Source: a virus. Taken from it: DNA of 45,108 nt. The DNA lies in the UHGV virus genome UHGV-0324336; one strand, given 5' to 3'. Shown here piece after piece: positions 6,131 through 45,108 of this stretch; positions within the stretch are counted from its first letter, which is position 1; every line of letters starts with the position of its first letter. A model generated the notes under the pieces. That model did not search any database. It saw only the letters and a list, made by a program, of their open reading frames with translations, and was not told the DNA's origin. The position numbers and the translations under genes were made by a program.

Positions 6131-6486
6131 GCGCGCTCCAGTTCTGTGATTTTTATCCCCAGCCGACCACCAGGAACAGGCAGTCCGCGCACAATATTGA
6201 TTTCATCAAACTGCTCGTCGTCTATGAGAAGTCCGGCATGCGTCAGCGCATCCAGTGGTGCCTTCAGGATATTGTCCAGGTCGCGGCGGCGCTTATCCGG
6301 TGGCTCTGCAATAATTTTTATTGCCAGCCTTCCGGACAGGTTTAATTTCAACCGCTGCTGGCGAACAATTAGTGCCACATCACGGCGATAACGCTCACCG
6401 ACTTTTGATACAAAATATGTGTTGCCACGACGTCGCCAGTAAGTATTCACCGTCGGCGGATAAGGCAAAACAAACTCTATACGCAT
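6127..6486 (-). CDS. rusA: RusA-family Holliday-junction resolvase
   Basis: 119 aa; PDxRRRDLDN…LDAL…GxxxDD motifs match RusA (120 aa, …RRRDLDNLQKAAFDALT… as recalled). Confidence 0.85.
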   Translation of the reverse strand: MRIEFVLPYPPTVNTYWRRRGNTYFVSKVGERYRRDVALIVRQQRLKLNLSGRLAIKIIAEPPDKRRRDLDNILKAPLDALTHAGLLIDDEQFDEINIVRGLPVPGGRLGIKITELERA

Positions 6487-6498
6487 CAGTAACCTCTT

Positions 6499-7620
6499 TT
6501 ACCCGAGCACGCCGGTTGCAAAGGCGTGATCAAGAAAACGAAAAATTAAATCAACCTGGGAACCATGCTTTTCTTCGAACGCCAGCGGATCCGCATGAAG
6601 TTCGTTGTGATGTTCCCGGCACAACGGTAGCGTGAAAATATCGTGGGCCTTTGTTCCCATCCCTCCCTGACCGTGACCAATCAGGTGATGGGGATCGTCG
6701 GCTGGCTGACCACAACACGCACACGGCTGTGTCTTCACCCAGCGCGTATATTTCTCATTTACCCAACGGCGACGTTTAGGTCGCCTCATGAAAGATTCCG
6801 GAGACTCCGGATCAACGGTGATGCATACCACCGTCTTTTCCTGTGGTGGGTTCTGTTGCTGGTGGGCATGAGGCAACGGCGCAAGATTTTTTGTGCGCTG
6901 CTTCAGTATGCTGGTGGTGGTCTGCTCTCCCGGTACGATGTCGCTTTCGCGGTACAAGGAGCGGATTTTTTCCGCACGTAACCCCAGAGAACGACGTAAT
7001 ACTGCCTCCGGAAGCGCGTCCGCCACCTGATTGCAGACCGCCCACCAGGATAATTCAGCCAGCGACAATTCCCGCTCCTGCGTGCCATTCATTGCATGGC
7101 GTATGACGTCAATCATCCATGCTGACAGGTTTTGATGAGCAAGTTGCCCGAGTGATTCGGATGTCTGGTCACGCAACTGGTTGTCGCAGTGCCAGCACAA
7201 CACCATCGCGCCGGTACCGTAACAATGTATGACGATTTCACTGTGATGATAGTCACCATGAGGCCACTGGCAGGATTTGACATGACGCAACAGCCAGTCA
7301 GACAGTGCCCCAGCGCCGCCAGCAGCACGAATCACCCGCTCATCGCTGAAAAATGGCAGTAATGATTTATCCTCCGCCAGCGGCTGGCGAACGGCAGGGA
7401 CGACTCCGGACGGCAAACCGCGCATGCTTTTCGGTTCAGGCTCCACCAGCACTCGAGGGTTATGAAATACTTGCATGGATTCACGGCCCGGCCTAAGGAC
7501 CACCAGCCCGAGTTCCGGTACCAGAACAGGTCGAAGTAATATCCGCACGTTACCTCCAGATCCGTTGCTGGTATGTGCGGGATGGGCGCGGTGGGCGTTC
7601 GGAATAAGGGAGCCTGACAT
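6499..7620 (-). CDS. HNH-motif protein, DUF968/YdfU-like (start uncertain; alternative ATG at 7476)
   Basis: C-terminal CACCG…DPHHL…GG…N…CREHHNELH is a typical HNH/ββα-Me arrangement; position matches ydfU in Qin. Confidence 0.5.
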   Translation of the reverse strand: MSGSLIPNAHRAHPAHTSNGSGGNVRILLRPVLVPELGLVVLRPGRESMQVFHNPRVLVEPEPKSMRGLPSGVVPAVRQPLAEDKSLLPFFSDERVIRAAGGAGALSDWLLRHVKSCQWPHGDYHHSEIVIHCYGTGAMVLCWHCDNQLRDQTSESLGQLAHQNLSAWMIDVIRHAMNGTQERELSLAELSWWAVCNQVADALPEAVLRRSLGLRAEKIRSLYRESDIVPGEQTTTSILKQRTKNLAPLPHAHQQQNPPQEKTVVCITVDPESPESFMRRPKRRRWVNEKYTRWVKTQPCACCGQPADDPHHLIGHGQGGMGTKAHDIFTLPLCREHHNELHADPLAFEEKHGSQVDLIFRFLDHAFATGVLG

Positions 7621-18262: not shown

Positions 18263-20704
18263 ATGAGCACTGATAAAGAAGAATTTGCACTATATTGCGA
18301 AGCAAAAAATGACAAAGTAAGAAAACGCCTAGGAATTAAAGGTGGTTTTTACTGGACTACAGCAAAAAAATTATCTGTTGCAATCTCCCGCTGCATTACC
18401 GCAATGGATGACAACGATTATGATGAAGACGACTTTAAAAAACCCGTCCGCGTCAATTTGCCCGTTGTTGACGACCTTCCGCCAGAAGGCGTGTTTGATA
18501 CTGAATTCTGCAACCGCTATGAAAAAGGCGGGAAAGATGGCATCACAATGACATTTATCGGCCCTTCCCCCTCTGTTCAGGACAAACCAGCCAGCACTGA
18601 CAATACCAACATCAACGGCGAAGACATGACTGAGATTGAGGAGAGCATGCTTCTGCCTGTCTCCGGTCAGGAACTGCCCATTCGTTGGCTTGCTCAACAC
18701 GGCAGCGAAAAACCAGTAACGCACGTTTCACGCGACGAACTCCAGGCATTACACATTGCACGGGCTGAAGAACTACCGGCTGTTACTGCCCTGGCTATTT
18801 CGCATAAAACCAGTCTGCTCGACTCGCTGGAGATTCGCGACCTCCACAAACTGGTTCGTGACACTGACAAAGTTTTCCCTAATCCTGGTAATTCAGACCT
18901 GGGACTAATAACTGCTTTTTTCGAAGCATACCTGGACGCTGACTACACTGATCGGGGTCTGCTGACAAAAGAGTGGATGAAAGGAAATCGTGTTTCACGC
19001 ATCACCCGCACGGCTTCCGGTGCTAATGCTGGCGGTGGGAACAAAACCGATCGCAATCCGAATTTAGTACACACCCTCGACACACTGGATGTGGAGATTG
19101 CAGCAGCCACACTTCCGATGGATTTTAATATTTATGAAATTCCGGGCAGCGTTTATCGTCGCGCAAAAGAAGTAGTCCTGAACAAAGAAAGTCCGTTCAA
19201 AGAATGGTCCGCAGCACTTCGTGCAACCCCGGGTATTCTGGACTATTCCCGCGCCGCTATTTTTGCACTTATCCGAAGCGCACACCCTGAATTTTATCAC
19301 TACCCGGGACGCCTTCAGGGGTATATCAACGCCTATTTGACGGAAACTGATCACGAGAACCCCAGCAAGGAAACTCTCACAGCTGCCCGGCATACGCCGG
19401 AAAAAGATATCCTGGAAGAAATTAACCGCGAGGTGGTTACTGAGCGTGAAACAGAAGAAGAAAAACCACAACCATCTGACGCAATGGCAGGTGAACAGGC
19501 AACAACTGAAACAATGGAACCGGATACAACTGAACATGGCCAGAACGCGCAGTCGCTGGATGCTCAGTCGCAGGTGAGTTCCGCTAACCAAGTAAAAGTC
19601 ACCGCTGACGAAGTAAACAAAATTATGCAGGCAGCCAATATCAGCCAGCCTGACGCCGATAAGTTACTTGCTGTATCGCGTGGTGAATTTGTTGAGGGGA
19701 TTAGCGACCCTAATGATCCGAAATGGGTCAAGGGGATCCAGACTCGCGATTCTGTGAACCAGAACCAGCATGAATCGGAACGGAACGACCAAAAAGCGGA
19801 ACAAAACAGCCCAAATGCGTTACAAAACGAGCCAGAAACGAAACAATCCGAACCAGTAGCGCAACAGGAACCGGAAAAAGTCTGCACCGCCTGCGGTCAG
19901 AGCGGTGGCGGCAACTGCCCTGATTGTGGCGCGGTGATGGGCGACGCAACATACCAGGAAACATTCGATGAAGAGAATCAGGTTGAAGTTCAGGAAAATG
20001 ATCCGGAGGAAATGGAAGGCGCTGAACATCCACACAAGGAGAACCCTGGCGGCAATCAGCATCACGCCAGCGATAATAAAACTGGCGAGGCGACAGATCC
20101 CTTAATTAAGGTGAATGGTCATCATAAGCTCACATCCACCAGCAGAGCGGGGATTCATCTGATGATCGACCTTGAAACCATGGGAAAAAATCCCGATGCC
20201 CCAATTATCTCAATAGGCGCAATATTTTTCGATCCACAAACCGGAGATATGGGACCGGAATTTAGCAAGACCATCGATCTGGATACTGCTGGCGGAGTCA
20301 TTGATCGTGACGTCATTAAATGGTGGCTAAAGCAATCACGTGAAGCGCAGTCTGCCATTATGACCGATGAAATCCCGTTAGATGATGCACTACTGCAATT
20401 GCGGGAATTTATCGACGAAAACTCCGGTGAATTTTTTGTTCAGGTCTGGGGTAATGGGGCCAACTTCGACAACGTGATTTTACGCCGTTCATACGAACGA
20501 CAGGGTATCCCCTGCCCGTGGCGCTACTGCAACGATCGCGATGTACGCACAATCGTTGAGCTGGGGAAAGCCATAGACTTCGATGCCAGAACTGCTATCC
20601 CATTCGAAGGTGAGCGCCATAATGCACTTGATGACGCTCGTTACCAGGCAAAATACGTTTCAGCTATCTGGCAAAAACTGATCCCGAGTCAGGCTGATTT
20701 TTAA
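18263..20704 (+). CDS. RecE/YdfE-family protein with C-terminal DEDDh 3'-5' exonuclease domain (813 aa)
   Basis: C-terminal DnaQ-like motifs: DLETMG (Exo I), NGANFD (Exo II), HNALDDARY (Exo III); acidic low-complexity middle; CTACG…CPDCG zinc-ribbon-like element. Confidence 0.65.
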   Translation: MSTDKEEFALYCEAKNDKVRKRLGIKGGFYWTTAKKLSVAISRCITAMDDNDYDEDDFKKPVRVNLPVVDDLPPEGVFDTEFCNRYEKGGKDGITMTFIGPSPSVQDKPASTDNTNINGEDMTEIEESMLLPVSGQELPIRWLAQHGSEKPVTHVSRDELQALHIARAEELPAVTALAISHKTSLLDSLEIRDLHKLVRDTDKVFPNPGNSDLGLITAFFEAYLDADYTDRGLLTKEWMKGNRVSRITRTASGANAGGGNKTDRNPNLVHTLDTLDVEIAAATLPMDFNIYEIPGSVYRRAKEVVLNKESPFKEWSAALRATPGILDYSRAAIFALIRSAHPEFYHYPGRLQGYINAYLTETDHENPSKETLTAARHTPEKDILEEINREVVTERETEEEKPQPSDAMAGEQATTETMEPDTTEHGQNAQSLDAQSQVSSANQVKVTADEVNKIMQAANISQPDADKLLAVSRGEFVEGISDPNDPKWVKGIQTRDSVNQNQHESERNDQKAEQNSPNALQNEPETKQSEPVAQQEPEKVCTACGQSGGGNCPDCGAVMGDATYQETFDEENQVEVQENDPEEMEGAEHPHKENPGGNQHHASDNKTGEATDPLIKVNGHHKLTSTSRAGIHLMIDLETMGKNPDAPIISIGAIFFDPQTGDMGPEFSKTIDLDTAGGVIDRDVIKWWLKQSREAQSAIMTDEIPLDDALLQLREFIDENSGEFFVQVWGNGANFDNVILRRSYERQGIPCPWRYCNDRDVRTIVELGKAIDFDARTAIPFEGERHNALDDARYQAKYVSAIWQKLIPSQADF

Positions 20705-20762: not shown

Positions 20763-20966
20763 ATGAGCAGCTTATTTTTAACCGAAGATGAATTGCTAAT
20801 ATTAACGGGCTGCAAATATGCAAGCCACCAGCGAAAATGGCTAATGGAAAACGGGCTTCCGTTCTATACCAATCGTAGTGGCAAACCGATTGTCAGCCGG
20901 AATCTATTTACCTGCAATAAAACTTTACCACCACGCGAGGTAGAGCCGAATTTTGGTGCGATCTGA
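20763..20966 (+). CDS. DUF4224-like small protein in excisionase position
   Basis: 67 aa MSSLFLTEDELLILTGCKYASHQRKWLMENGLPF…; stop overlaps int ATG (TGATG). Confidence 0.5.
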   Translation: MSSLFLTEDELLILTGCKYASHQRKWLMENGLPFYTNRSGKPIVSRNLFTCNKTLPPREVEPNFGAI

Positions 20967-21289
20967 TGGGAAGACGAAGGAAAAATCCTGAACACGAAAA
21001 ATTACCTCCAAATGTATACCCAAATAAATATAGTTATGTATGGAAACCAACATCCAGAGAATCTGTCACACTAACCGCCATCAAGGATGGTTTAGCTGCT
21101 TTATGGAAAAAGTATGAGGAAACTGTAAATAATCGCGATCGTGCAATGACATTCGGTCGCTTGTGGGAAAAATTCCTCGCCAGCGCCTATTACAGTGACC
21201 TTAGACCGATGATACAGAGTCGAAAAATCAAAGAGTTAAAAATTTTTCTTGGAATAAATGTCTTAAAATCGTACACGAAAAATCAATGA
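20966..21289 (+). pseudogene. int: integrase N-terminal fragment (arm-binding domain only; truncated tyrosine recombinase)
   Basis: MGRRRKNPEHEKLPPNVY… aligns with lambda Int N-terminus (MGRRRSHERRDLPPNLY…) but ORF stops after 107 aa; no catalytic domain (R..HxxR..Y) in any frame before the next gene. Confidence 0.75.
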
Positions 21290-21513
21290 ATTACATAACA
21301 TTAAAGAAGAATATTCCAAGCCTTCTTGAGTCTACCACCTGTTTTCAGGTGTCATTCAGACGTGATTTGCCCCAGATTGGGAAAGCACGCTTTTTTCTCA
21401 GCTTATTCCATTTTGCCTGTGTGTTGAATAATTCCACTGCAGTTATATAAAATCGGTAACGGCTGGAAATAATTCAATACTCGTACTATCGAAAGTTAAC
21501 CAGCCAGCCGCAG

Positions 21514-21552
21514 TATCCTATCATGACAAGTTACTGCGGCTTTTTACTTTTT
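21514..21552 (+). terminator. hairpin plus T-rich tract at int/tail-fibre junction
   Basis: AGCCGCAGTA-(14 nt)-TACTGCGGCT followed by TTTTTACTTTTTA on + strand. Confidence 0.35.
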
Positions 21553-21556
21553 ATAT

Positions 21557-21859
21557 TTAACGGATCAACATCCAGATCAGCAGACACGCCACCACCGGCA
21601 CAGCAAAATCCATCAGGCTTGCCACATCCCACGCGCGCGGATCAAAACCGCCCCACCACGGCATATTCATACGCTTGCCATGCCCGAACATTTCAATCCA
21701 GCGATATTCTGCCTGGGTGTGTTCACGCGCAATGAAGAACGTACAACCGGCTATCGCCCCGTAAGCCCAGTTCCCGGTAAAAAGACCAATCAGTAGCTGC
21801 GCAGCCACAGCACAAAGCGCATGAAGGAAAGGTGTTATATCCATTTTCATCCTACCCAA
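21557..21859 (-). CDS. small integral membrane protein downstream of tail-fibre genes (function unknown; exclusion candidate)
   Basis: 100 aa with several hydrophobic segments; 27 nt after the preceding fibre gene, last gene before the int fragment. Confidence 0.5.
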   Translation of the reverse strand: MGRMKMDITPFLHALCAVAAQLLIGLFTGNWAYGAIAGCTFFIAREHTQAEYRWIEMFGHGKRMNMPWWGGFDPRAWDVASLMDFAVPVVACLLIWMLIR

Positions 21860-21886
21860 TAAAACGGGGCGCTCGGCCCCTTAATA

Positions 21887-22927
21887 TTATTTAGACGCAA
21901 GCGCCGCCTCAATTGCAGATAATCTTTGTCTTAATTCTGCGTTTTCTTCTTCCAGTGCTGTTATTCTGTCGTCTGACTCTCTGGCTACCTGAACAAGCAA
22001 GCCAGTAATACCAGAATAATCTACTGTGTAATAACGTTCACCTTCTTCACCTTCCGATCCGCTTGCACCGTCCTGATATTTCATTGCGGAACCTACAACT
22101 TCCGGGATTGCTTCCAGAGCTTCCTGTGCAATGACACCAGCATAGGGCATACCGTTTTCTTTAAGCGTGTATGTATAGCCGTTCATTTTACGGATGCGGT
22201 CGGTTGCATTATCGATCACCTGAATGTTGTCTTTCAGATCCCGGTCGGAATGCTGGTTAAATGCGGTGGCATGACATGCACCATTAACGCTTAACATATA
22301 GGTGTTATCGGTATTTTTCTGCGCATAGAACATATAAGCGCCACCATCAACACCGACTTCATAAACAACAGGACGGCTGGAGTTGCCCCACAATCGAGCA
22401 GTAACACCAGCATAAGCGGTTCCCCGTGTGTTTAATGTCATGGTTGACCCATGATTGGCATATTTGATCTGTAATGTGTCGGTGTAATCAAATTTAATAA
22501 GCGCGTTACTTCCACGCTTGCTGTATGACATAAGGCAGTTACCCATTTTGAGGTATCCGCTGTCACCGGGAAAAATCATCGTACCGCCATAAAGGTTGGT
22601 AAAGTCCCAGCAAATGTTTGTCCCGTTATCGTTCAGGTTAAGGCGCGCCATTGCGTTACCTGGACTGTCTATCCATTTTTTGAGGTATAGTTCGCAATAC
22701 GCATCCTCAACACCTGCCGTCCTGTGAGTTGAGCGGAGTTTTCTCCCAAATATAGCTCCGCTAGTTGGCAATACCTGCTGATACCATGAAGCAGACCAGT
22801 CACCAACGATTTCATCTTTGCTGTCTACATATAATTTTGTTGCGTAGCTTCCTTGATCGTTTTTTAATTTGCTAACGTCGGATTTTAGCGTTTTGATGTC
22901 ATCAGGAATTACTGTCGATGTAGCCAT
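21887..22927 (-). CDS. tail fibre/spike-like protein with C-terminal S74 intramolecular-chaperone autoprotease domain
   Basis: C-terminal S-D-R-D-L-K-D-N-I motif (Ser-Lys dyad of endosialidase-type chaperone domains), then coiled-coil tail ITALEEENAELRQRL. Confidence 0.65.
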   Translation of the reverse strand: MATSTVIPDDIKTLKSDVSKLKNDQGSYATKLYVDSKDEIVGDWSASWYQQVLPTSGAIFGRKLRSTHRTAGVEDAYCELYLKKWIDSPGNAMARLNLNDNGTNICWDFTNLYGGTMIFPGDSGYLKMGNCLMSYSKRGSNALIKFDYTDTLQIKYANHGSTMTLNTRGTAYAGVTARLWGNSSRPVVYEVGVDGGAYMFYAQKNTDNTYMLSVNGACHATAFNQHSDRDLKDNIQVIDNATDRIRKMNGYTYTLKENGMPYAGVIAQEALEAIPEVVGSAMKYQDGASGSEGEEGERYYTVDYSGITGLLVQVARESDDRITALEEENAELRQRLSAIEAALASK

Positions 22928-22936
22928 TTTTCTTCC

Positions 22937-23218
22937 TCACATCCAGCCACGAAGTTGATGCTCAACAGCAACCACGTATTCATCGAATAATGACGATATT
23001 TGCGAATCATTAATGATGCGCACGTTTACAAAATATCCGTCTTCCTTAACACATACCGGTTCGCCATCTTCAGTCAGTTCTCCGGTTTCTTTGTACACGT
23101 TACCTATCACGTCAATAAGAATATCATCCTGCATCGACTCGTCATCATAATAGCCAATACTCTCCATAAAGGCCGAAAAGTCGGCCCTGTCGGCAAATTT
23201 GAGTGTTAAATCTTTCAT
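22937..23218 (-). CDS. small acidic protein translationally coupled to stf (possible fibre assembly factor)
   Basis: 93 aa; start overlaps stf stop (TAATG); 9-nt gap to next fibre gene; not lambda Tfa. Confidence 0.45.
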   Translation of the reverse strand: MKDLTLKFADRADFSAFMESIGYYDDESMQDDILIDVIGNVYKETGELTEDGEPVCVKEDGYFVNVRIINDSQISSLFDEYVVAVEHQLRGWM

Positions 23219-25452
23219 TAGATTGACTCCCCCACCTGAGCATCAGTCAATGCCTTGTGCCATATTCTGAAATTCCTGACATGACCAAATAAATGACGTA
23301 ACCCGGCTGTAGTCTGACCTCCAATACGGATAATTGCGGTGTTCTGAATACAGGACCATGTGGTTTTTGTTTCGCTGGATATATGCCCGTTACTTACTGA
23401 GCACGTAGACTGCTCTGACTTTACACGCATCCCCATAACCATTTTTTCAAGCGATGCGTTTTCGTTTACCCGTCTGCTAGCTCCTCCAATATCGCAATAA
23501 GGAAATCCGTCGTAATCTGTTGAACGACCGAAGCCAAGAATAATAGCCGCTCCGGTTTGATGACCGCCGGTATCAAAAACACGTGGCGCTGCATTTGGCG
23601 TTTTATACCAGTTCTTATGTACCTCACAAAGAACCGTAAAAGGAAGATTATAAAGATTATTCTTAATTGGAACTGTAACTATATCGCTTGCGCGGGTCGC
23701 CGCCGTCGCTCCTGATATAATAAAAGATGATACACAAGGCCCATCTTCTACTTGTGGGGTGGCCAGATAAATATAGTCACCAGATACGGTTGCCCCGCTC
23801 TGCTTAGGAGAATACTGTATCTGAGAGCCTATTTTTAACTCCCCATCAATTGCCTGAATTGTTGCCTCTGCAAAAATCCATCCGGTAGCTTCGTCCTTTC
23901 TGACTCTCGCTGTAATCCTTGAGGCAGCACCGCCTGTCATATTAATTTCAAGCGTTTGTGTATCAATATACGCATCACCAAGAAAAGTTGTTGCGCTACC
24001 GTCATATTTATCAAACCGGATACGCAACCTTACCTGCAGTTCTGTTTTAAAACGACATGAGGTTGTCACGTGTTTATTATCGCCTGAGACATCAACTGAC
24101 TTTGTTGCAGCAATTGATGCCATATTAATGGCTGAGGTTTGCCCAATCAGAGAATCGTTGCAGACAAACTTTCCATAGGTAAAACCAAAATTATCCGTCC
24201 CTGTTTCGGGCACATCCATATTTGACGATCGCCCCCAACTGGCAGGGCTTTCCGAATTGAGCATGTAGTTTGTTCTTTGCCCCTCAATAAGCAGGCCATC
24301 ACGTTCAAATCGTGGCTCGTCAATGGCAGCCTCTGTCAGCACACCAGATTTATTAATATAGGTTGCTTTCGATGCACGTTTAAACTTAACAATCTTGTCG
24401 CCAGGCATCGTTATTTCGTCGTCACCAATAACAATCTTTTTATATGATGGCGAAAAGCCCGTAATCATATCCAGTGAATCGTTAAACGGTATCCACACAT
24501 CAGGCAGCGGCTGTAAGACATATTTATACGGATCTGCTGCCTGGCTTGCATACTCTCTGGCTGCGTCTTCACTTGCTTTTGCAGCGGTCTGGCTTGCAGC
24601 GGATGCTTTCGCCGAGTTGGCCGCCGCAGTTTCGCTGGCTTTGGCATTCGTTTCGCTGGTCTTCGCTGCCGTCTGGCTGGACTTTGCGTTAGTTTCACTC
24701 GTCTTCGCAGCTTTCTGGCTGTTAGCCGCAGCAGTTGCTGATCCAGCTGCTGAAGTCGCAGAACCGGCTGCCGCGCTCTCGCTTTGGGCTGCTGCAACCT
24801 GGCTGTTTTTTGCCGCAGTTTCACTGGCTTTGGCATTCGTTTCGCTGGTTTTCGCTGCCGTCTGGCTGGACTTTGCGTTGGTTTCGCTCGTCTTTGCGGC
24901 TGTCTCGCTATTTTTCGCGTTGGTTTCTGATTTTTTGGCTGCTGTCGCGGAGTTTTCTGATGCAGTCTGTGAGGTCGCTGCCGCCTGTGCACTATTAGCT
25001 GCATTCGTTTCTGAGGTTTTCGCCGCGTTCTTCGATGATGCCGCTGCAGTTTCGGATTTCTTTGCCGCCGCTGCGCTCTGAGAGGCGGCTTCGGCGTTGC
25101 GTGCCGCTTCTTCCACCATTTCCTCAAAACGACGCAATGCCTCCGGCATGACATCATCTTCCGTCATGGCACCGAGAAAATCATTCAGCGTACCTGGTCT
25201 GGAACCTTCATAGACGGTAATGGTTCCGGCATGTGAAGGCGGAAAACCTTCAACAAGCAGGATAACGCTGTACTGGCCATACTCAACATCCATGCTGTAA
25301 CGCCCGGCTTCATCCGGATTTTCAGAGGCCACCGTGTTCACCAGTACCGTGGTGCTGTTACGCTTTGCCTTCAGTTGAATAGTGCAGTTCTGTATTGGTT
25401 TTCCCGCACCATCTTTCAGCACACCTGAGATTTTTACTGCTGCCATATCCAC
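23218..25452 (-). CDS. stf: side tail fibre Stf (lambda-like N-terminus, non-lambda C-terminal LamG/ConA-like lectin domain)
   Basis: N-terminus MAVKISGVLKDGAGKPIQNCTIQLKA… matches lambda Stf; Ala/Ser/Thr-rich helical repeats; C-terminal …LFGHVRNFRIWHKALTDAQV typical of LamG-type domains. Confidence 0.8.
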   Translation of the reverse strand: MDMAAVKISGVLKDGAGKPIQNCTIQLKAKRNSTTVLVNTVASENPDEAGRYSMDVEYGQYSVILLVEGFPPSHAGTITVYEGSRPGTLNDFLGAMTEDDVMPEALRRFEEMVEEAARNAEAASQSAAAAKKSETAAASSKNAAKTSETNAANSAQAAATSQTASENSATAAKKSETNAKNSETAAKTSETNAKSSQTAAKTSETNAKASETAAKNSQVAAAQSESAAAGSATSAAGSATAAANSQKAAKTSETNAKSSQTAAKTSETNAKASETAAANSAKASAASQTAAKASEDAAREYASQAADPYKYVLQPLPDVWIPFNDSLDMITGFSPSYKKIVIGDDEITMPGDKIVKFKRASKATYINKSGVLTEAAIDEPRFERDGLLIEGQRTNYMLNSESPASWGRSSNMDVPETGTDNFGFTYGKFVCNDSLIGQTSAINMASIAATKSVDVSGDNKHVTTSCRFKTELQVRLRIRFDKYDGSATTFLGDAYIDTQTLEINMTGGAASRITARVRKDEATGWIFAEATIQAIDGELKIGSQIQYSPKQSGATVSGDYIYLATPQVEDGPCVSSFIISGATAATRASDIVTVPIKNNLYNLPFTVLCEVHKNWYKTPNAAPRVFDTGGHQTGAAIILGFGRSTDYDGFPYCDIGGASRRVNENASLEKMVMGMRVKSEQSTCSVSNGHISSETKTTWSCIQNTAIIRIGGQTTAGLRHLFGHVRNFRIWHKALTDAQVGESI
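24623..24900. repeat. two ~89-bp near-identical direct repeats 189 bp apart inside stf
   Basis: GCCGCAGTTTCGCTGGCTTTGGCATTCGTTTCGCTGG… at 24623-24711 and 24812-24900; encode repeated AAKTSETNAKxS units. Confidence 0.7.
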
Positions 25453-25510
25453 TCCACAAAAAAGCCCGCCTGAACCGGCGGGCTGTCATAACACTGTGTT
25501 ACCTGGCTAA

Positions 25511-26110
25511 TCAGAATTTATAACCGACACCCACGATGAAACCGTCAGTGCGCCAGTCACCACTGCCGGAACCTTCATAAGCAAGGTCAATGGCCACGGA
25601 TTCGGTCGGGTTAAACTGCACGCCAGCCCCCCACGCCAGAGACGTGTTGCTGTGGCGACCGTCATCACTTCCGGTCAGCACATCGTGCGTTTTCCCCTTG
25701 TTGTCAGTTACGCGGAGATAATCCCCGGAGAAGGTCGACACACGGCTGTAAGCCATACCCGCCATCGCATAAGCACTGAACCATTCATTCACGCGTACAG
25801 ATGGCCCCGCCATCATGCTGAACCAGCGGTTACGCACGGAATCTTCATGCCAGCGGGTATCGCTGTAATGCGTTTTTTGCTCATCTTTGGCATTGGCATA
25901 ACTGAATGACGTCACCAGCCCCAGCGTGTCCGTAAATTCATAACGGTATTTCACGTTAATGCCCTTCAGGTCATCACTGCCTGGCATATCAGTATGGGTC
26001 TGAAGATACCCGGCGCTTAGTGTGGACTGATGCTCTGCTGCGCTCGCTGGCGTACCAGCGGCAACCAGCCAGACTACTGCGGACAGAATAACAGCACATA
26101 ATTTACGCAT
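25511..26110 (-). CDS. lom: Lom outer-membrane protein (Ail/PagC family)
   Basis: Signal peptide then beta-barrel OMP sequence ending …GVGYKF; position after J as in lambda. Confidence 0.85.
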   Translation of the reverse strand: MRKLCAVILSAVVWLVAAGTPASAAEHQSTLSAGYLQTHTDMPGSDDLKGINVKYRYEFTDTLGLVTSFSYANAKDEQKTHYSDTRWHEDSVRNRWFSMMAGPSVRVNEWFSAYAMAGMAYSRVSTFSGDYLRVTDNKGKTHDVLTGSDDGRHSNTSLAWGAGVQFNPTESVAIDLAYEGSGSGDWRTDGFIVGVGYKF

Positions 26111-26177
26111 AATTACCTCTCGCTTTTCTGCAATAAAAAAGGCGTCATTTCTGACGCCCGTATTGGGGTTATAAAAT

Positions 26178-29100
26178 TCAGCTGATACTGATGCCTGCGG
26201 TGGCTTTCTTCATCACCACAACCAGCAAATCGCTGATACTTGCTGTGGGATACCAGTCATTTACCAGCCATGCTGACACCGAAAACTCCAGCGTCATGTG
26301 ACCGTGACCGGCAGGCATATCAATAACGCCACTGTAAATCAGCGTATTATCCAGCGCGGTACGGTTATAAATTTCAGCACCGTTTTTCCGCACTATCAGA
26401 CGGCATGAGGAGTAAATATCAGTATGCTCTCTCTCATGTTTAGCGCCGCTGAATGCCACCGCCGGAATAACAATCTGCCGGTCAAACGGCTGATCGTCAT
26501 AAATCCTGACGGTAATGGTCCCTGATGGCCACCGTTCCGGTGCACGGGAGTCCCGGGGGAAAGCTTTGCCCACTGTTTTAACGAGATCGCCTTCAATCTG
26601 GTTCGCGGACAGTTTTCCCAGAACCCGGCAGTTCTCGTTAATCGTGACGTTGTTGAGCGTCCCGGAGTTCGCATTCACGTTACCGCTGATATCGGCATTT
26701 TTCGCCGTCAGCCGCCCGTCCGGTGTCAGGGAAAATGCCGGAGGATTACCGCCGCTGGTAATGGTGGGAGCCGTCAGATATTTCAGGAACACTTCATTCA
26801 TAAATATCTGATCGCCCTGACCAACAAACATCGGCTTTGTGTTGCCATTCGCAGGATTAACCATCGCAATCCTGTCCGCCGCCAGCAGCACCTGACTCTG
26901 CATGCCGTCAGGGGTGTTCTCAATACCGGCACCAATACCCGCGATATAAAGGCGTCCGTCCTGCATCTGCTGCAGCTTCACAGCCCACATGCTGTTCAGG
27001 TTATTATTTGTATCAACCTGAACCTTCTGTATCTGCTGAATTGCCGCACTCTGGTCTTCCAGTTTCTTATTGACGGTCTGCGTGATTTCATTGCTGACAT
27101 CCGTAATGGACGTCCTGATTTCAGCCAGGTCAGGCGCAAGCTGACCGTTATCAATCTGCGTCCACAGCTCCTGAGCCAGATGGCTTTTCCCTATCTCGCC
27201 TTTGAAAAAATCCAGATAGCCGGATGCATCATCACTCGGCTGGCCAACAGCCTCCACAAATGCCGATTTGCCAACGGTGTTCACACTGCGGATGTAAAAA
27301 TAATAATCATGGCCCGGTTTGATATTGATACTGGCAGCTATCCAGTACAGCGCCGTGCCAAGATAGCGGGCTGTGGTTTCAACCTGCCTGATATCCGCAA
27401 TCCGCTTTTCCGAGAACCAGAACTCAAACTGTACCGTCGGATCATAAACGGCAAGATGCGGCGTGGCGGTTATCTGAAAATAGCCCGGCGTCAGCTCAAT
27501 CCGCGACGGCGCTGCCGGTGCGGCAATACGGAACGATACCGATGCCGGATCGCCCTGCTGCCCCCAGGCATTTGCCGCCCGGACTGTCAGCCTGTAGTTT
27601 CCCAGCGCCAGTTGCGTGAAGCGGTATGTGGTTTCCGTCGTCCGGGCCGTGCTGACCAGCCGCTCACTGCCGTCATCCGCTGCCACGGTCAGGCGAAGCA
27701 GGAAGCTCACGCCCTTCACCACCTTCGGTGTGTCCCATCGCGCCAGCACCTGATATTCCCCGCTGTCTGCAGTGACTTCTGCGGTCAGGTGCTGCACCGC
27801 TGGCGGCGTGACACCATTCACCGTGCCACTCTGTTCGCCGTCAAAGTGCGCCCCGTTATCCACGATGGCCTCTTTTTCCGGCACATGCTGCACGGCGGTG
27901 ATGGCATACGTGCCGTCGTCGTTCTCACGGATACTCACGCAGCGGAACAGTCGCTGGCGCAGCGTCGGCAGCTTCAGCCCCCATACGCTGTATTCAGCAA
28001 CACCGTCAGGAACACGGCTCACTTTTACCTTCACGCCGTCGGTGACGGACTGAACCTCCACGCTGACCGGATTGCCACTTCCGTCAACCAGGCTTATCAG
28101 CGTGGTACCGGAGGATGGCAGCGTGATTTCACGGTCGAGCGTCAGCGTCCGGGTCTGGCTGTTCACCGCCAGCACGCGACCACCGGTGCTGATACCGGCA
28201 TAGTCATCATCGCAGATTTCAATAACATCGCCCGGCACATGGCGAAGCCCTTCTGCGCCCACGCTGAAATCCACGGTCTGCGTTTCCAGCAGTTCCGTTT
28301 TAATCAGCCACAGCCCGGCGCGGTGTGCCTGCCCCCGGCTGGTACAGCCAAAGGCATCCATCTTCGTGACATTACGACCGTAACGGGCAATGGCCTGCGT
28401 ATCTTCAACAAGCTCTGTCGCCGTCTCCCAGCCGTTGTTCGGGTCAATCCAGTTCACCTCAACGGCATTATGGCGGTCCTTCAGGGCGCTGAAGCTGTAG
28501 CGGAACGGCGCGCCATCATCCGGCATCACCACATTACTGCGGTTATAGGTCCACACCTTATCCGACTGTCGGTCCTGCACGAACGTCAGCGTCTGCCCGT
28601 TCCATACCGGCATACAGCGCATCGCCGAGCAGAAATCACTGAGCACATCCCACGCCTTGCGCTGTGTGGTCAGGTACGCATTACAGGTGATGCGCGGCTC
28701 CGTGCCGCCAAAGCCGTCCGGCACTGACTGGTCGCAGTACTGGCCGATGACATACAGCGCCCATTTGTCCACATCCGCCGCACCAAGACGTTTCCCCATG
28801 CCGTAGCGCGGGTGGGTCAGCATATCCCACAGACACCAGGCCATGTTGTTGCTGTATGCTGGTTTTAACGTTCCGTCCCAGATACCGCTGTATTGTCGCG
28901 TCTGTGGGTTATAGTTCGACGGCACCTGCAGAATGCGCCCGCGAAGATGATAATTACGGCTCACCTGCTGGCTGCCGAACTGCTCCGAGTCCACCTGTAC
29001 GCCGACCAGTGCCGTGTTCGGGTAGCACTGTTTCACATCGATGATCTCGGTGTATGACGACCAGAGCGTTTTGTTCTGCAGCTGGTCTGTGGTGCTGTCC

Positions 29101-29657
29101 GGCGTCATCCTGCGCATCCGGATATTGAACGGGCGCGGCGGCAGGTTATCCACCACCACCGAGGCCAGATACTGCGAGGTGGTTTTGCCCTTAATGGTGA
29201 TGTCTTTTTCCGTCACCCAGCCACCGTTACGCTGTATCTGAACCAGCAGGCGGACTTCCGACGGATTCCTGTCTCCCTTTGAGGTGGTTTCCACCAGTGC
29301 CTGTACACCGAAGGTAAAGCGCAGACGGTCGATGTTTGCCGACGTGATGGTCCGGGTGATCGGCGTTTCATATTTCACTTCCGTACCGAGCACCGTCTCG
29401 GAACCGGAGGATTCAAATCCCTCCGGCGGTGACTGCTCCTGCTCACCTGCCCGGAACACCACCGTGACGCCGGAGATATTGGTATTCCCCTCACTGTCCA
29501 GCACCGGCGTACTGTTCAGCAGCACGCTTTTTAATCCATCCACCGGACCTTCAATCGGCCCTTCGCTGATGGCATCAATCGCACTCAACAGCTGCGTGGA
29601 TTTCAGGTTATCTTTCGCTTCGCGCGGGGTATGCCCCTTACTGCTGCCTTTACCCAT
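26178..29657 (-). CDS. J: tail tip/central fibre protein J (lambda-like N-terminal ~1000 aa, divergent C-terminal receptor-binding region)
   Basis: Starts [24 protein letters not shown]… as lambda J; 1159 aa vs 1132 in lambda; C-terminal ~150 aa differ from recalled lambda J. Confidence 0.9.
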
Positions 29658-44963: not shown

Positions 44964-45108
44964 TGTTCATTCCACGGACAAAAACAGAGAAAGGAAACGA
45001 CAGAGGCCAAAAAGCTCGCTTTCAGCACCTGTCGTTTCCTTTCTTTTCAGAGGGTATTTTAAATAAAAACATTAAGTTATGACGAAGAAGAACGGAAACG
45101 CCTTAAAC
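44964..45108 (-). promoter_or_regulatory. cosB-type terminase-binding region (partial; cosN lies beyond window end)
   Basis: Reverse complement of window end (GTTTAAGGCGTTTCCGTTCTTCTTCGTCATAACTTAATGTTTTTATTTAAAATACCCTCTGAAAAGAAAGGAAACGACAG…) matches recalled lambda left-end sequence ~positions 55-190. Confidence 0.8.

Follow-up and report, generated by a model that had tools for sequence, protein, structure and literature searches.

Introduction

Lateral tail fibres of siphophages are known from several described systems. The Stf-Tfa pair of lambda (Ur-lambda) serves as an accessory adsorption fibre, with a PF08400 N-terminal anchor and an alanine-rich shaft, and is encoded after J and lom. 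In the T5-like phage DT57C, the second lateral fibre protein (LtfB) attaches through the first (LtfA), and the two proteins recognise separate O-antigens (PMC4728585, PMC10713586). RcGTA, the gene transfer agent of Rhodobacter capsulatus, carries a head-spike fibre, a lectin-like beta protein that was experimentally found to bind capsular polysaccharide (PMC10218006). The locus analysed here, at positions 21,887 to 25,452 of a 45,108-nucleotide stretch of UHGV virus genome UHGV-0324336 (the window, meaning this whole stretch), encodes a side tail fibre protein (Stf), a 93-aa (amino acids) acidic protein (p93) and a second fibre protein, and has in common with lambda Stf-Tfa the anchor, the shaft, the place after J and lom and the role of an accessory adsorption fibre. 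A sequence-only reading had taken it for a non-lambda receptor-binding cluster grafted onto a lambda tail. The cluster is indeed not that of lambda and does stand on a lambda anchor, but other phages have this arrangement too: the 'graft' is one allele combination of a standard lateral-fibre module common to several siphophage lineages. It is a locus of an already known kind, widespread, and present in near-identical copies in deposited phages. The locus is probably the lateral tail-fibre module of a lambda-like siphophage in its widespread three-gene form, predicted to build a branched fibre of two tips, with a glycan-binding head and with p93 as an assembly factor or junction piece.

Organisation and occurrence of the module

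The window has the layout of a lambda-like phage genome in reverse orientation: minus-strand genes for terminase, head and tail extend from a position near 45,000 to J and lom. The three genes of the fibre module are packed tightly on the same strand downstream of J and lom:

23218-25452, minus: stf, side tail fibre protein, 744 aa; phrog_1419 'tail protein', E 0
22937-23218, minus: p93, 93-aa acidic protein, found as an open reading frame (ORF); phrog_1361 'unknown function', 2.4e-46
21887-22927, minus: second fibre protein, 346 aa; phrog_4563 'tail fiber protein', 1e-219; PF13884, 6.2e-14
21866-21880, minus: terminator-like GC-rich hairpin closing the fibre operon, GGGGCCGAGCGCCCC followed by GTTTTATT (T-run)

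Translation of stf from GTG gives 744 aa and from an ATG two codons in (25446) 742 aa; the 742-aa Stf product (P0001) on a 45,119-bp ENA contig was identical over the distal 424 aa queried. The TAATG by which stf and p93 had been proposed to be translationally coupled was seen, stop and start overlapping by one base (caatcTAATGaaag). The TGA stop of p93 sits within a Shine-Dalgarno-like GAGGAAG, with 9 nt between it and the ATG of the second fibre, and within the three-gene set a hairpin is present only 3' of the third gene. The stop/start overlap, the 9-nt gap with its ribosome-binding site and the position of the hairpin together indicate that stf, p93 and the second fibre gene are expressed together. 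A reading of these genes as chance ORFs was rejected on the PHROG matches, the ratio of nonsynonymous to synonymous substitution (dN/dS) and the synteny across phage families.

At least 80% of the 4.1-kb region was found in 379 of 5,426 complete Escherichia coli genomes, mostly at 96-98% identity. In the lambdoid isolates Tritos, PhiR63_1, HannyBb and 2G7b, the module is present at 97-98% nucleotide identity, annotated as tail fibre and hypothetical proteins, and differs in allelic detail alone (shaft length and a few substitutions). With the virulent Nonagvirus vB_EcoS_ESCO3 included, gene set and order are identical at 95-98% nucleotide identity. In ESCO3, however, the distal half of Stf, p93 and the second fibre (about 95% nucleotide identity) are carried on a different anchor, since the similarity starts at the Stf linker and follows an N-terminal anchor and shaft of its own, and the membrane protein gene found next to the module in the window is absent. 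The same three-gene order was found in further virulent phages, namely Nonagvirus JenP2 (40-43% amino-acid identity), Seuratvirus VogelGryff and the T5-like L6jm, and p93 also occurs in Dhillonvirus and other phage records of about 50 kb. In Salmonella phage L6jm (locus L162, 2644-7019), the linker and head of this module belong to an LtfA-like protein with a T5-type fibre anchor, which is accompanied by p92 and by a second fibre with the same N-terminal motif. Its presence in L6jm indicates that the module crosses between temperate lambdoid and large virulent siphophages. The account of lateral-fibre loci in the BASEL papers fits this shared-module view (PMC8594841); with respect to direct characterisation of this module, the literature yielded generic statements on lateral fibre loci only.

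Side tail fibre protein Stf

The following parts of Stf were distinguished:

25051-25440, minus: residues 5-134, lambda-type N-terminal tail-tip anchor; PF08400 phage_tail_N, 5.4e-67
24538-25050, minus: residues 135-305, repetitive shaft rich in Ala/Ser/Thr, with KTSETNAKxSxTAA-type repeats; from composition, repeats and lambda alignment
24268-24537, minus: residues 306-395, conserved linker (PLPDVWIPFNDSLDMITGF...EPRFE..GLLIEGQRTN); most invariant columns of the distal-region alignment
23653-24267, minus: residues ~396-600, variable beta-sandwich head, homologue of the RcGTA head-spike fibre; NF048003 and 6tb9_F3
23221-23652, minus: residues 601-744, variable LamG/ConA-like terminal domain ending in conserved RHLFGHVRNFRIWHKALTDAQ; Laminin_G_3 across alleles

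That Stf keeps the N-terminus of lambda, as the sequence-only reading had stated, was borne out by the PF08400 match (224 bits against a Pfam cutoff of 26.6), by 83% identity to the lambda anchor over 126 aa and by a match of the anchor to PDB 9e7m_Ta, 'Tail fiber protein' (1.2e-49). Alignment to lambda orf-401 (anchor and shaft) was obtained at residues 5-285 only, at 61% identity. With its PF08400 anchor, and with its gene placed after J and lom in a tail operon of lambda type, the protein belongs to lambda-type Stf. The shaft (68 Ala, 34 Ser and 23 Thr in 190 residues) is encoded by imperfect tandem repeats of 42 and 21 nt, and its length differs by allele, giving Stf proteins of 686-803 aa among the loci examined. 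Two further ORFs overlap this part of stf, one antisense (24395-25081, plus, 228 aa) and one out of frame (24465-25157, minus, 230 aa); these are by-products of the repetitive GC-rich Ala/Ser/Thr codons and not genes. Lambda orf-314 (the C-terminus of Stf) and Tfa gave no significant BLASTP alignment with Stf or the other module proteins, and no Tfa-type family was found in the Pfam or PHROG results for the module. The distal half of Stf is unrelated to that of lambda, and p93 and a second fibre with an S74 domain stand in place of Tfa, in agreement with the view that the cluster differs from lambda stf-tfa.

The distal 430 aa of Stf are made up of the conserved linker, a beta-sandwich and a terminal LamG-like part. 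Within the linker, about 50 aa are identical to Nonagvirus JenP2, although the two proteins are 40% identical overall. The NCBIfam model NF048003 (GTA_spike_fiber) matched residues 388-588 (3e-13, 50.7 bits against a cutoff of 36), and a profile made from the distal-region alignment matched chain F3 of PDB 6tb9 (Rcc01080, the RcGTA fibre) over about 240 residues (8.9e-16); a PDB sequence search with Stf matched by the N-terminus alone. An AlphaFold2 (AF2) model of residues 300-744, built from a 21-sequence alignment, had a mean predicted local distance difference test score (pLDDT) of 48.6 and was usable only at about residues 400-570 (pLDDT 75-94), which form a beta-sandwich. Foldseek with this confident core gave, as top folds, fibre proteins of Pseudomonas phage Pa193/E217, carbohydrate-binding modules (CBM4 and CBM6) and legume lectins, and the matches to CBMs were interspersed with a Klebsiella K2 tailspike and an arabinanase. 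Laminin_G_3 matched all 11 of the aligned alleles of the distal region (best E 1.5e-7). Judged from these matches, most of distal Stf is linker and RcGTA-like beta-sandwich, and LamG takes up only the last ~145 aa. Rcc01080 shares sequence homology with the Stf head and lies on the capsid vertices of the gene transfer agent, where its first 10 residues anchor it to a pentameric base; in Stf, by contrast, the homologous domain sits at the distal end of a tail-fibre shaft, to which it is fused, with the LamG-like domain after it.

The GTA-like domain of Stf is probably a glycan-binding head. Laminin_G_3 falls within the ConA-like lectin/glucanase superfamily, and with the K2 tailspike and the arabinanase among the Foldseek matches it might be asked whether the distal domain is a glycanase of that superfamily, degrading O-antigen or capsule, rather than a passive lectin. 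This is quite unlikely, since the closest relative in sequence, the RcGTA fibre, is described as a binding protein, the top folds are binding modules, legume lectins and phage fibre proteins, and no catalytic family was matched by Stf in Pfam or NCBIfam.

Second fibre protein

The 346-aa protein was divided as follows:

22832-22927, minus: residues 1-32, conserved N-terminal peptide MxTxT[VI]IPxDIxxLK, candidate docking element; cross-family invariance
22250-22831, minus: residues 33-226, predicted mature body in two independently exchanged parts (33-130 and 131-226); allele comparison
21890-22249, minus: residues 227-346, S74 auto-cleaving chaperone and C-terminal helix, predicted cleavage before Ser227; Pfam and motif

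A fibre- or spike-like protein with a C-terminal S74 chaperone domain and a coiled-coil tail had been described at this place, and both features were recovered. Peptidase_S74 (PF13884) matched residues 227-278 above the Pfam threshold (52.5 bits against a cutoff of 22), and the S-D-x-x-x-K motif, S227-D-R-D-L-K232 (in SDRDLKDNI), is followed by a heptad-like helix to the C-terminus. In an alignment with 6f45, the S16 long-tail-fibre chaperone domain, SDRDLK falls opposite SDRRIK; a PDB sequence search with the whole protein matched by the S74 domain alone. Self-cleavage before Ser227 would leave a mature fibre of 226 residues. The C-terminal PF13884 domain and the Ser/Lys motif are thus shared with the S74 fibres K1F endosialidase, T5 pb1 and S16 gp37, whereas the mature part is much shorter here and holds no recognisable anchor domain beyond the N-terminal peptide of 15-32 residues. 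In this peptide M1, T5, I7, P8, D10, I11, L14 and K15 are invariant among lambdoid, Nonagvirus, Seuratvirus and T5-like second fibres, the bodies of which are otherwise unrelated. Residues 163-219 showed weak similarity to the fibre repeats of T4 gp34, and homology to the tips of lateral fibres from T5-like, rV5-like and Drexlerviridae phages extends over residues ~150-346.

Homologues of the 346-aa protein are annotated as 'putative lateral tail fiber chaperone' (VogelGryff) and 'endosialidase chaperone' (ESCO3), and the S74 domain itself bears the name 'chaperone of endosialidase'. That the protein is a trans-acting chaperone of Stf and not a fibre is nevertheless very improbable: S74 domains work in cis on their own polypeptide, as in K1F endosialidase and T5 pb1 (cited in PMC4728585), and the 346-aa protein has a 226-residue body before the cleavage motif, with repeats like those of T4 gp34 and homology to long-fibre tips of T5-like and rV5-like phages. 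Moreover, this body occurs in exchangeable alleles, in the manner of a receptor-binding protein.

In many lambdoid loci a 234-aa second fibre takes the place of the 346-aa form (for example at 6292-6996 of both L013 and L071). The two have only the first ~32 residues in common and are otherwise unrelated. The 234-aa form has the N-terminal peptide, a predicted coiled coil and, by eye, an S74-type motif (SSIRYKHSVETID...GLIAEEV), and its mature part would be only about 115 residues.

Recombination within the module

About 155 IMG/VR loci, baited with p93 or with the second fibre (80 of them with p93), were compared, and an identity map was made in 60-nt windows against ten loci. The parts of the module assort independently across these loci. 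Identity is 45-100% in the GTA-like head and 33-99% in the LamG-like end, and the 80 p93-baited loci contain no fewer than 11 alleles of the distal region of Stf taken as a whole; p93 is mostly 90-100% identical, and divergent versions of 89-92 aa occur; the second gene is either the 346-aa form, with two variants of its N-domain, or the unrelated 234-aa form. Residues 1-130 of the 346-aa form are found in variants of about 55% or about 100% identity, independently of residues 131-346. Identity changes sharply at the linker, between the head domains, at either end of p93, within the second fibre and ahead of the membrane gene, and at least seven segments are exchanged independently. Mosaic tail-fibre loci are a textbook site of phage recombination, and the recombination hotspot that the sequence-only reading had expected here is supported by this independent exchange. 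The checks which that reading had named, namely S74 and LamG profiles and alignment for identity to lambda stf-tfa, were run and did not refute the finding.

p93 and assembly of the fibre

As had been described, p93 is acidic (pI 4.05; 21 D+E against 7 K+R) and is not lambda Tfa, to which it has no similarity; it also matched no family in Pfam or NCBIfam. Phage records with p93 number 198, and in nearly all of them a fibre gene lies directly next to it; its median dN/dS is 0.24, with values below 0.15 in most of the more diverged pairs; its conservation and its presence in these records mark it as a real gene. An exhaustive profile search gave 81 representatives, of which nearly all stand alone, with a length of about 90-100 aa. 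The small number of long matches consisted of short repeated stretches and look like composition artefacts, and a domain-fusion clue was rejected on that ground. The AF2 model of p93 had a pLDDT of 82, and a fold search from it gave no informative match; by sequence, the PDB returned chance-level matches to GAPDH only. Covariation of p93 with the terminal domain of Stf was also considered and was rejected, p93 being 94-100% identical next to heads that are 33-99% identical. p93 is probably a fibre assembly factor or a junction adaptor.

By analogy with siphophage lateral fibres, the Stf head would bind a surface glycan (O-antigen, capsule or lipopolysaccharide core) for a reversible first adsorption, after which J would make the terminal contact. 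The second protein would trimerise and cut itself before Ser227, and the mature second fibre would dock via its conserved N-terminal peptide onto the conserved part of Stf and/or p93. Its docking partner would most simply lie inside the module, because phages with different tail tips share the Stf type and p93, and the second fibre would then be attached to the virion through Stf. The fibre would then branch and end in two receptor-binding tips, like that of DT57C, and p93 would take the place of Tfa as an assembly factor or a junction piece. DT57C and DT571/2 likewise have two adjacent fibre genes (LtfA and LtfB), the second with S74, and here stf and the 346-aa gene, both with variable distal segments, fit the layout of two neighbouring fibre genes with separate receptor-binding regions that belongs to the DT57C type. 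Exchange of head or tip cassettes would alter the host range, and a host range different from that of lambda, as proposed earlier, would be expected.

Several points weigh against this branched, glycan-binding form of the module. Stf has no S74 domain (no PF13884 match), unlike LtfA of DT57C, which has its own; no p93-like gene is mentioned in the DT57C paper (PMC4728585), and the two systems are likened by gene layout and description. The site of the second fibre and the presence of p93 in the virion are predictions made from sequence. With regard to the end of Stf, the LamG/ConA-like domain proposed earlier was borne out in part, with support across the aligned alleles and a weaker match for the protein of the window itself, on which Laminin_G_3 (PF13385) reached 0.0063 and 17.1 bits, below the cutoff of 27.6, over the last ~53 residues only; the AF2 model failed at residues 571-744 (pLDDT ~25). 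p93 is 94-100% identical beside Stf heads of 33-100% identity, a constancy that argues against a specific contact with the variable head, although recombination spreading one p93 allele explains it equally. Finally, in phage 21 and related phages Stf is accompanied by a p93 homologue but by no second fibre, so p93 is not solely an adaptor for a second fibre.

The occurrence of p93 in phage 21 also favours the main rival explanation, according to which p93 is a transient folding or trimerisation chaperone of the Stf head, a substitute for Tfa that is not in the virion, and the second fibre is mounted at another site of the tail tip as an adhesin in its own right, with no branching. p93 lies just 3' of the fibre gene and overlaps it, the classic position of a fibre chaperone, and the 9g paper speaks of a 'cognate chaperone' of the side fibre (PMC4276943). 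Against this, in each of the phage groups examined the conserved N-terminal peptide of the second fibre is accompanied by this Stf type and by p93, despite lambda-like, 9g-like and T5-like tail tips, and p93 has no similarity to any known chaperone in PDB sequence or fold searches. On balance the unbranched arrangement is rather doubtful, and the branched fibre is preferred.

A bolder version of the branched fibre can be put forward tentatively, though it is itself rather unlikely. p93, the Stf linker, the C-terminal strand of Stf and the second-fibre peptide could together form a universal plug-and-socket junction on which lambdoid, Queuovirinae and T5-like phages alike would build branched side fibres. 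In that case p93 would not be a chaperone but a structural component of the virion, representing a new fold family.

Neighbouring genes

The features flanking the module are:

26178-29657, minus: J, directly upstream of the fibre genes, with lom between
25511-26110, minus: lom; Ail_Lom match, 1.5e-127
25463-25484, minus: terminator-like hairpin in the lom/stf gap; found by scan as an 8-bp stem with 7 GC pairs, followed by TTTTTGTGGA
21557-21850, minus: small membrane protein, ~97 aa, 3' of the hairpin of the fibre operon; phrog_1443, 4.9e-58

In the record of phage 21 a terminator is annotated just 5' of its stf. A second strong terminator-like hairpin was seen at 26140-26159 (minus) and, together with that in the lom/stf gap, brackets lom, which suggests that lom is a self-contained unit between J and stf.

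The phrog_1443 membrane protein, for which two transmembrane domains are annotated in phage 21, is 87-100% conserved in lambdoid loci regardless of the fibre alleles and is absent from the virulent ESCO3 and JenP2. It is probably a prophage moron rather than a fibre component, with a possible role in exclusion or surface modification.

Beyond the membrane gene, a DUF4224 excisionase-like ORF (20763-20966, plus) is followed by a 107-aa ORF (20966-21289) with an integrase-like N-terminus and no Pfam match. The corresponding part of Tritos (20763-21556 in positions of the window) contains a complete integrase, a regulator and PinR, and the two phages are again homologous only from 21566 on; truncation or replacement of the integration module is possible. 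An 813-aa protein (18263-20704, plus) combines an exonuclease VIII N-terminal region (PF06630) with a C-terminal Rv2179c-like 3'-5' exonuclease (PF16473), the two parts being separated by a long acidic stretch of low complexity.

Significance

For the window itself the finding is of little significance, the module being already present in hundreds of genomes. If the plug-and-socket junction were true, any second-fibre cassette could be mounted on any Stf head. The lambda chassis is being engineered for DNA delivery via chimeric Stf (PMC11338833). The practical value of the module lies in its natural splice points, namely the linker at Stf residues 306-395, the C-terminal motif of Stf, p93 and the N-terminal peptide of the second fibre, at which heads and tips are swapped naturally.

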